Of a stretch of 41,993 nt of DNA, positions 33,589 to 33,765 are shown piece after piece. The DNA comes from an uncultured Gammaproteobacteria bacterium. GTDB taxonomy: Bacteria; Patescibacteriota; Patescibacteriia; UBA9934; GWF2-40-263. Position 1 is the stretch's first letter; each line of letters opens with the position of its first letter. The stretch spans positions 1 through 41,993 of the forward strand of contig CAYHDY010000004.1 of the NCBI GenBank assembly GCA_964355525.1, given 5' to 3'. A program made the position numbers and the translations under genes. Under the pieces are notes generated by a model, which saw only the letters and a program-made list of their open reading frames with translations, was not told the DNA's origin and ran no database searches.

Positions 33589-33617
33589 TTTTTACCTGAT
33601 TTTCATAAAATGGTCAA
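33589..33617 (-). promoter_or_regulatory. promoter TTGACC-N17-TAAAAA for the 1055-aa gene
   Basis: The sequence is identical to the promoter at 30173-30201. Confidence 0.55.
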
Positions 33618-33624
33618 GGTCATT

Positions 33625-33732
33625 CGCGTCCCCACCCATACCCTCCCCTGTGGTCAGGGGAGGGGTAGCGAATTGAATCGATTTATTCGCGCTCCCTCCC
33701 CCTGAGCACAGGGGGAGTCGGAGGGGGACGCG
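33625..33732 (+). repeat. double-hairpin element (DHE) copy C
   Basis: Layout, 5' to 3':
- CGCGTCCCC-ACCCATA.
- Hairpin 1: CCCTCCCCTG-TGGT-CAGGGGAGGG.
- GTA, then GCGAAT-TGAATCGATTT-ATTCGC, then G.
- Hairpin 2: CTCCCTCCCCCTG-AGCA-CAGGGGGAG.
- TCGGA-GGGGGACGCG.
The 9-bp termini are perfectly complementary. Confidence 0.9.
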
Positions 33733-33765
33733 AAACAAAAAGACCGCCGGAAAGATTCCAGCGGC
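33733..33765 (-). terminator. probable intrinsic terminator after the Ubl gene
   Basis: The minus strand reads CCGCTGG-AATCTTT-CCGGCGG (one mismatch) followed by TCTTTTTGTTT. Confidence 0.45.

Follow-up and report, generated by a model that had tools for sequence, protein, structure and literature searches.

The repeat copies and the signals around them

The 41,993-nt window considered here, which is the whole stretch of DNA that was analysed, is a complete contig of a bacterium of the Patescibacteria (Candidate Phyla Radiation, CPR), and it carries four copies, A to D, of a palindromic intergenic element of 103–138 nt, whose nature and origin are the subject of this work. Among the genes on the window are mraY-ftsW-murG, rpmA, pyrG, pgi, glycosyltransferase genes and tdk, and the nearest relatives of its pyrG belong to Patescibacteria metagenome-assembled genomes (MAGs), with 74–75% identity. 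The minus strand also encodes a cluster of seven genes (27351–38671), whose products are a ~300-aa protein, a RuvB-like AAA+ protein, a JAB/JAMM-like protein (HSHCDMAPFHSGGD), a ThiF/E1 protein, a 141-aa HeH and ubiquitin-like (Ubl-like) protein and two giant paralogues of 1055 and 921 aa. Copy A (11475–11612, plus strand, 138 nt) lies upstream of rpmA, and copies B (30209–30311, minus strand, 103 nt), C (33625–33732, plus strand, 108 nt) and D (37428–37535, plus strand, 108 nt) lie in the cluster. A possible fifth unit, solitary, degenerate and weak, was noted on the plus strand at 17886–17929 (CCCCCTCCCTACCTCCCCCTGTTAAGGGGAGGAGAGCG), within the gene for phosphoglucose isomerase. Its translation, SAPSLPPPVKGRR, falls at a loop that exceeds its counterpart in PDB 2q8n by 6 aa.

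The same strain is present in five other assemblies (99–100% identity), where the element copies are identical; copy A is unchanged in the independent assemblies L085, L086 and L089, and copy B in L084. Some contigs of independent assemblies stop within the element, namely at window position 11503 in L087 and L088 and at 33630 in L084, as expected of a repeat and compatible with its repetition in the genome. The readable part of the source genome amounts to 42 kb, on which four, perhaps five, copies are found.

Pairwise identity among copies A to D is 87–97%, and all follow one plan. Each core is built of two inverted, non-identical units of ~45 nt, separated by an AT-richer spacer of 17–22 nt that holds ATTGAATCG in every copy. 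Unit L reads CGTC-CCCACCC-ATA-(CCCTCCCCTG-N4-CAGGGGAGGG)-GTAGCG, and unit R is its imperfect reverse complement, with the stem CTCCCCCTG and the tail GGAGGGGG-ACG; written as reverse complement, unit R becomes CGTC-CCCCTCC-GA-CTCCCCCTG-N4-CAGGGGGAG-GGAGCGCG. Hairpin 1, CCCTCCCCTG-N4-CAGGGG(A/C)GGG, and hairpin 2, CTCCCCCTG-N4-CAGGGGGAG, are present in all four copies, as are the termini C(G/A)CGTCCCC and GGGG(G)ACGCG. With G+C stems of 10 and 9 bp and 4-nt loops, the units have the form of repetitive extragenic palindromic (REP) stem-loops, i.e., imperfect palindromes of 20–40 nt. The tetranucleotide CGTC or GACG stands at all eight outer termini, and the terminal inverted repeats (TIRs), (A)TTCGCGTCCCC / GGGGACGCGAA(T), extend over 11–13 nt. 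Copy A, in which unit L precedes unit R, bears a 29-nt internal insertion, CCTGCCCACCGAAGCCTTGGCGTAGGTGG, at ~11573–11601, and in copy B the entire core is turned round with respect to the other three. A sequence-only reading that preceded this analysis had described the four copies, their termini, hairpins and spacer core, the insertion in A and the flipped B, and each of these statements was confirmed.

The same reading had regarded the two hairpins as imperfect reverse complements forming a quasi-palindrome, and the repeat is indeed strongly structured: folded as single-stranded DNA (ssDNA), copy C reaches −42 to −43 kcal/mol, compared with −19 ± 2.8 kcal/mol in shuffled sequences (z about −8), with a predicted shape of a closed junction of hairpins. 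According to such models, the ssDNA can form either a closed junction, with two large hairpins and, in copy C, a small spacer hairpin, or one long hairpin. A scan of both strands of the window for canonical G-quadruplex motifs (four tracts of G3+ separated by N1-7) returned only four, all of them GGGGAGGGTATGGGTGGGG within the element and identical in the four copies (11480–11498, 33630–33648 and 37433–37451 on the minus strand, 30288–30306 on the plus strand). In a search of the window with Rfam 15, no family matched the element even at a permissive E-value, and tRNA-Lys alone passed the gathering threshold.

The flanks are as regular as the cores. At all four copies the order terminator, element, promoter on the minus strand, as previously proposed, was seen by scan and by eye: a hairpin with a T-run is followed by the element, 6–7 nt and a promoter of the form TTGAC(A/C/G)-N17. 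All the copies lie between tandem minus-strand genes, 50–75 nt past the upstream stop codon. At copy A, the terminator of the 170-aa membrane-protein gene (11613–11660, minus strand; hairpin plus TCTTTTTGTTT) is matched in the sister genome L090 by a hairpin and T-run homologous to it, and the rpmA promoter (11439–11467, minus strand; TTGACA-N17-TACACT) is conserved there. Copy B is placed between the terminator after the 1055-aa gene (30312–30343, minus strand) and the promoter of the 921-aa gene (30173–30201, minus strand; TTGACC-N17-TAAAAA); copy C between the terminator after the 141-aa Ubl-like gene (33733–33765, minus strand) and the promoter of the 1055-aa gene (33589–33617, minus strand; TTGACC-N17-TAAAAA); and copy D between the terminator after the ~300-aa gene (37536–37567, minus strand) and the promoter of the RuvB-like operon (37393–37421, minus strand; TTGACG-N17-TAAAAA). 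The terminators of B, C and D were found by consensus scan and that of A, with its 16-nt loop, by eye. Conversely, the promoter of A was found by scan, and those of B, C and D were read by eye, as the scan requires a −10 box ending in T and so misses TAAAAA. This −10 box recurs in orthologous clusters of other genomes. The terminator of B has a counterpart at the equivalent junction in L081, L083, L093 and L094, those of C and D are matched at orthologous junctions in relatives, and orthologous promoters are found there for the 921-aa gene and the RuvB-like operon.

Short stretches of flank are common to pairs of copies, which had also been reported before and was confirmed: A and C share AAACAAAAAGACCGC (15 nt, on the terminator side), and B and D share AATTAAAAA (9 nt). 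In addition, the promoter flanks of B and C (30157–30208 and 33573–33624) differ by one mismatch in 52 nt. The 5′ untranslated region (5′UTR) and coding sequence next to this flank are diverged; the giant genes are old paralogues with <30% amino acid identity, already duplicated in all orthologous clusters. Judged from these alignments, the 52-nt match indicates a recent gene conversion ending at the terminal repeat of the element, and the patchwork of shared flanks shows that the copies have exchanged sequence with one another, short flank stretches included.

Empty sites in relatives and a wider repeat family

In the sister genome L090, which shares ~77% nucleotide identity with the window and is syntenic from pyrG to murG, the site of copy A is empty. 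The terminator hairpin, the T-run and the promoter TTGACAC...TACACTTCCGTCAG are contiguous there (GGGGCGG-TTTTCTTTTTTTCCACACGTTTCC-TTGACAC..TACACTTCCGTCAG), at the place where the window reads GGAGCGG-TCTTTTTGTTT-(138 nt)-AGTCATC-TTGACAC..TACACTTCCGTCAG, and BLAST homology between the window and L090 ends at 11468. The rpmA promoter had been thought to be supplied by the element; since it is unchanged at the empty site, it is ancestral. The 170-aa and 471-aa genes at 11.4–14 kb are conserved in L090 as well, so that the region formerly called "island 1" is not an island.

The cluster junctions lead to the same picture. The seven genes occur in the same order in L081/L092, L083, L093, L094 and L095; the junctions were read in four of these clusters (L081, L083, L093 and L094), and L095 was examined by blastn. 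At the same three gene junctions, the terminator T-run is followed within 1–21 nt by TTGAC(A/G), with the junction IG1 of L093, which contains the second element described below, as the exception, and then come a 16–18-nt spacer, a −10-like hexamer (TAAAAA, TAAAAG, TAGAAC, TAAGAC, TTAAAT or GGATAT) and a 5′UTR hairpin. The element was not found at the junctions read in L081, L083, L093 and L094, blastn detected no copy in L081, L083, L093, L094, L095 or L097–L099, and none was found in phage-borne relatives of the cluster. Because relatives that lack the element show these junctions too, both the terminators and the promoters are ancestral and no part of the repeat, and the composite module of terminator, hairpin element and promoter proposed earlier falls apart into its components. 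The orientation of copy B leads to the same conclusion: the core is flipped with its promoter and terminator in place, hence only the core is the repeat unit. The suggestion of a transposable element carrying an outward promoter fails in its promoter part on the same ground, there being no promoter in the element. Taken together, the alignments show the cores to be insertions in the few nucleotides between the terminator T-tract and the −35 box, with both signals left intact.

A second case of this kind is found in L093, where an unrelated element of 162 nt with 22-nt TIRs (AGATCGTCTGAATCCTATGTTC) lies at 7416–7577, upstream of the RuvB-like gene in the gap that separates a terminator T-run from the −35 box, and is missing from the close relative L094. 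Two unrelated elements at terminator/promoter gaps in two lineages make these gaps appear to be recurrent landing sites.

Relatives of the element were sought by its architecture. A metagenome scan for two CCCCTG-N4-CAGGGG hairpins 25–50 nt apart gave at least 120 loci; some of the matches listed were CRISPR-like arrays, and a large share were heterodimers of the form CCCCACCCCAACCCTCCCCTG-N4-CAGGGGAGGGAGCA-spacer-GCTCCTCCCCCTG-N4-CAGGGGGAGGTTGGGAGGGGG, with the same left/right asymmetry as the window copies. A profile hidden Markov model (HMM; nhmmer) built from 28 such elements, all from outside the window, matches A to D at E-values of 4e-13 to 6e-11 (1.3e-11 for A, 4.1e-13 for C and 6.2e-11 for D), the matching polarity scoring 15–20 bits above the reverse. 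For copy B this polarity is the minus strand, with 40.1 bits compared to 20.3 on the plus strand, and the possible fifth unit is matched at 2.4e-5. As the training elements were chosen by the hairpin pattern of the window copies, ~24 nt of the match are circular; the remaining ~30 matching positions and the shared asymmetry were not imposed by the search pattern.

On this evidence, copies A to D belong to an unnamed doublet family, CCCCACCCC-AA-CCCTCCCCTG...CAGGGGGAGG-TT-GGGAGGGGG, with members in Rhodanobacter, Dyella, Rahnella, Azospirillum and soil and bog metagenomes; Rhodanobacter L126, for example, has CGTCCCCACCCCAACCCTCCCCTG where the window has CGTCCCCACCCATACCCTCCCCTG, and the family counterpart of the G-quadruplex motif is GGGGAGGGTTGGGGTGGGG. 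Among genome contigs, the half-unit pattern CGTCCCC-N9-11-CCCCTG-N4-CAGGGG occurs at 51 loci, mostly chance matches in GC-rich genomes, with few true family members (Rhodanobacter, Dyella, Lysobacteraceae). Related elements are further found in 48 plasmid or chromid records, at 122 places, including intergenic ones of Azospirillum and Rahnella. Outside the window, family members occur singly or as doublets, the latter facing either inward or outward. Sequence matches of this sort show that the family is spread over Gamma- and Alphaproteobacteria as well as soil and bog metagenomes. When the window element was compared with plasmids by BLAST there was no match, the GC-rich family consensus had none in 5,426 Escherichia coli genomes, and a literature search for the sequence strings of the family retrieved irrelevant papers and no published name.

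When the four window copies and 28 elements of the family are folded jointly with RNAalifold, the consensus is a single long hairpin in which the left and right units pair. Loop columns 37/116 and 40/113 covary between the units, being U-A in the window copies and C-G or G-C in the family; a test for compensatory changes had been recommended beforehand. Such covariation in the loops implies that complementarity is kept along the whole length, as in the paired REP elements known as REPINs. Separately, the half-unit pattern also matches unrelated, abundant repeats in L141 (1–420), L114 and L116 (a Desulfobacca MAG) and in L107, L109, L142, L143, L146 and L148 (an Oscillospiraceae MAG), one of which is a tandem repeat of ~67 nt, ACGTCCCCCTCCCCCCAGCCCCCTGCCACCAGGGGCGGGGGAG; C-run/G-run hairpin repeats of such style appear to be common.

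Origin of the copies

It is likely that the copies are REP doublets, i.e., a non-autonomous palindromic element resembling REPINs or bacterial interspersed mosaic elements (BIMEs) that was inserted at permissive sites and spreads as selfish DNA. The frame for this reading is the anatomy of REP doublets as given in PMC3337134 and PMC2817692, together with the account of REPs, REP dimers, their transposases and their preference for unidirectional or convergent intergenic sites in PMC3733652. All four copies are extragenic and lie between unidirectional genes; the possible unit at 17886–17929 would be intragenic. The REPINs of Pseudomonas fluorescens SBW25, which are mobilised by REP-associated tyrosine transposases (RAYTs), likewise consist (PMC3116915, PMC3337134) of two inverted REP units with a short spacer, measure ~100 nt and fold into one long hairpin. 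They are also extragenic, multi-copy and non-autonomous, with no evident target duplication and with covarying halves. The present element differs from them in that no RAYT gene was found for it in the window or in the loci fetched, and in that its GTAG tag is off the canonical position. E. coli BIMEs and the REP dimers of PMC3733652 are similarly heterodimers of two REP types in opposite orientation around a spacer, occupy sites between genes of one direction, on the downstream side of the upstream ORF, and show evidence of gene conversion among copies. Unlike BIMEs, the element follows an intrinsic terminator instead of replacing one, and so lies mostly outside the mRNA.

The tag is that of the CGTC superfamily of REPs (Di Nocera et al., 2013; PMC3733652), the units of which are mostly dimers with CGTC/GACG termini as in the element, and for which no dedicated transposase is reported in that paper. 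Its families CGTC-1 to CGTC-4 have 8–9-bp stems starting with A/T, loops of 4–5 nt and CCA tails (PMC3733652). In contrast, the element has a C/G-rich stem of 9–10 bp, a C-rich head of 9–11 nt after the tag and the inner tails GTAGCG / GGAGCGCG, and is none of the four families.

As for the mechanism, the copies would have spread selfishly and would persist at the terminator/promoter gaps of a very compact Patescibacteria genome, these gaps presumably being among the few sites where ~110 nt can be added harmlessly. Active targeting of T-tract or hairpin contexts would be the alternative to such neutral landing. Mobilisation would occur in trans, probably by an HUH tyrosine transposase of the RAYT or TIRYT (IS200/IS605-like) type, a proposal drawn from family resemblance; an HUH enzyme acting on hairpins in ssDNA would explain the absence of a target duplication. 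Effects on the neighbouring genes would be secondary and could include displaced upstream promoter DNA, an additional block to read-through or promoted gene conversion.

Several observations weigh against a mobile REP doublet. In tblastn with nine RAYT/TIRYT sequences from PMC3733652, no RAYT/TIRYT-like gene was detected in the 42-kb window, and in the loci fetched none adjoins a family member; the single strong match to a RAYT, in L252, lies 9 kb from the family element there, and its flanks resemble a different REP, of the GTAG type. All four copies are in regions of the window that are richer in GC, and a single gene cluster accounts for three of them, an uneven placement that could reflect targeting or local spread instead of free dispersal. 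The stems depart from those of the four published CGTC families, and further copies within 42 kb are limited to the possible fifth unit. An exact 24-mer and a degenerate central pattern of the element had no match in collections of genome, metagenome and viral contigs, among which the source genome is not included, and six-frame peptides of the element had none among 5.8 billion proteins. Comparison with genomes lacking the insertions, proposed earlier as a way to define target sites, did yield empty sites, and the flanks of the L090 site are too diverged to show the presence or absence of a target-site duplication.

The last point bears on the rival that stays closest to the roles suggested by the sequence-only reading, namely a MITE (miniature inverted-repeat transposable element) of the TIR type, a deletion derivative of an insertion sequence (IS) with a DDE transposase that would move by cut-and-paste through its 11–13-bp terminal repeats. 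The TIRs of all copies, the size of ~105 nt, the two orientations, the empty L090 site and the true TIR element at a like junction in L093 are what such an element would produce. It is nonetheless improbable, as the flanks of the four copies (TCA/CGA, TCG/CGA etc.) contain no consistent direct repeat, no IS with the ends of the element was seen in the window, the halves are complementary over their full length, loops included, and in other bacteria the family occurs singly as well as in either doublet arrangement, which is typical of REPs and not of MITEs. Of the three roles put forward earlier (operator, insulator or RNA-stability element, MITE with an outward promoter), the MITE-like one comes nearest, in that the element behaves as an insertion; the outward promoter and the operator or system-specific role were not upheld. 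The Correia elements (NEMIS) of Neisseria, which produce a TA target duplication, are able to generate promoters and contain an integration host factor (IHF) site, are likewise intergenic palindromes of ~100–150 bp with TIRs beside genes in either orientation. Unlike them, the present element shows no target-site duplication and has no promoter inside.

A structure selected by the host, acting as insulator, read-through back-up, supercoil-absorbing cruciform or G-quadruplex, or as a gyrase/HU site as in E. coli BIMEs, is given even less credence. The position of each copy is exact, with a terminator on one side, a promoter on the other and 6–7 nt to the −35 box, the element folds very stably, the only four canonical G-quadruplex motifs of the window are in the element, and roles of BIMEs and REPs in supercoiling, termination and mRNA stability have been proposed (PMC3733652). 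However, the gap is only 1–24 nt wide in relatives, so that nearness to the −35 box follows from any insertion into it; the junctions of the orthologous clusters and the L090 rpmA locus do without the element, which makes an insulator, G-quadruplex or cruciform role unnecessary; the orientation is not conserved, copy B being flipped; and L093 tolerates an unrelated element in that position. A site specific to the Ubl/E1/JAB/RuvB-like system, either an operator or a junction-like DNA substrate for one of its proteins, was suggested by the three copies that partition the cluster and by a fold resembling a four-way junction next to a RuvB-like gene. It can be set aside almost entirely, since all five orthologous clusters and the phage-borne relatives lack the element, copy A stands at an unrelated locus, and the family populates unrelated intergenic sites in Proteobacteria. 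The sequence-only reading had itself held that a system-specific role would fail for a plain REP scattered at unrelated sites; the element type is essentially so dispersed, in unrelated Proteobacteria, which applies at the level of the family only.

Other readings were rejected. Integron attC sites or cassettes do not agree with the absence of RYYYAAC...GTTRRRY cores, the separate promoter of each unit and a gene order that is fixed in six genomes without the element; a promoter carried by the element was dismissed because copy B flips while its promoter stays; and CRISPR-like repeats and a small RNA gene were considered and discarded.

An extension of the REP-doublet reading goes further. A single doublet family common to Proteobacteria and an episymbiont-type Patescibacteria genome would imply transfer between phyla together with an unseen mobilising enzyme, the element would in this host home specifically to the junction of T-tract and −35 box, and GGGGAGGGTATGGGTGGGG, which in three of the four copies is located at about −45 to −65, would switch between hairpin and G-quadruplex and so tune promoters or insulate units. 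As a whole this is a speculation with a low chance of being correct.

Neighbouring features and significance

The conserved regulatory architecture of the cluster is the succession of terminator, TTGACA-N17-TAAAAA and 5′UTR hairpin. The hairpins of the window (30117–30172, 33529–33588 and 37338–37392) follow TTGACA-N17-TAAAAA or a similar −10 box and start each transcription unit of the cluster; their position, not their sequence, is kept in L081, L083, L093 and L094, in genomes of 29–68% GC, and they may represent a common signal for regulation or for the stability of the mRNA. In the promoter-early stem-loops (PeSLs) of T4-type phages, a junction of terminator and promoter is repeated between gene cassettes. 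The likeness, which is one of analogy, would concern the ancestral terminator / TTGACA-N17-TAAAAA / 5′UTR-hairpin junctions of the cluster and not the 105-nt element.

The cluster itself, which besides the window is found in L081 (5564–16026), L083, L093, L094, L095 and L097–L098, is conserved and very rare. The giant proteins have only two relatives besides those of the window among 5.8 billion proteins, and the JAB-E1-Ubl genes together with the N-terminal domain of the giants are also present on low-GC viral contigs of IMG/VR. PADLOC returned no defence-system match for the seven cluster proteins, only weak generic AAA+ matches, and an exact look-up of the RuvB-like protein found it not on record.

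Elsewhere on the window, the segment 4247–6577 is missing from L090. It is bounded by tRNA-Lys (6579–6653) and a 38-nt copy of the 5′ part of this tRNA (6251–6288), holds a gene resembling a 5-hmdU DNA kinase (PF18723) at 4270–5238, and looks like a small element integrated at a tRNA gene. A second short repeat, GCGGGGTCTGGGGACCCCGCCCATAGCTGAGG, is located at 13969–14000, 25675–25706 and 21144–21175; one copy is the pyrG terminator hairpin, one (97% identical) lies in a sugar-transferase ORF, and the third is 78% identical. In several more distant Patescibacteria (L003, L012, L017 and others, compared with window 11118–15621), rpmA stands next to pyrG and converges with it; in the window and L090 the two genes are in tandem with the 471-aa and 170-aa genes between them, an arrangement that is a lineage-specific rearrangement. 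Between the 170-aa and 471-aa genes, 12301–12394 is a palindromic divergent-promoter region, conserved in L090, with a near-consensus TTGACA-N17-TATATT on each strand.

With regard to annotation, the repeat should not be described as a regulatory module of the ubiquitin-like/RuvB-like cluster; the element is probably selfish DNA of an ordinary kind, found in an unusual host, and the gene cluster that it interrupts looks more unusual than the repeat. In a literature search no paper was found that links REP, REPIN or MITE elements to Patescibacteria, and the copies described here provide a clean example of REP doublets, with empty sites, in a genome of this group. The range of the doublet family would thereby include Patescibacteria in addition to Gamma- and Alphaproteobacteria. 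According to the literature, inheritance of REPIN-RAYT systems is mostly vertical, and a family that spans Proteobacteria and a Patescibacteria genome departs from that pattern; if the single-family view holds, the element would have passed between phyla.

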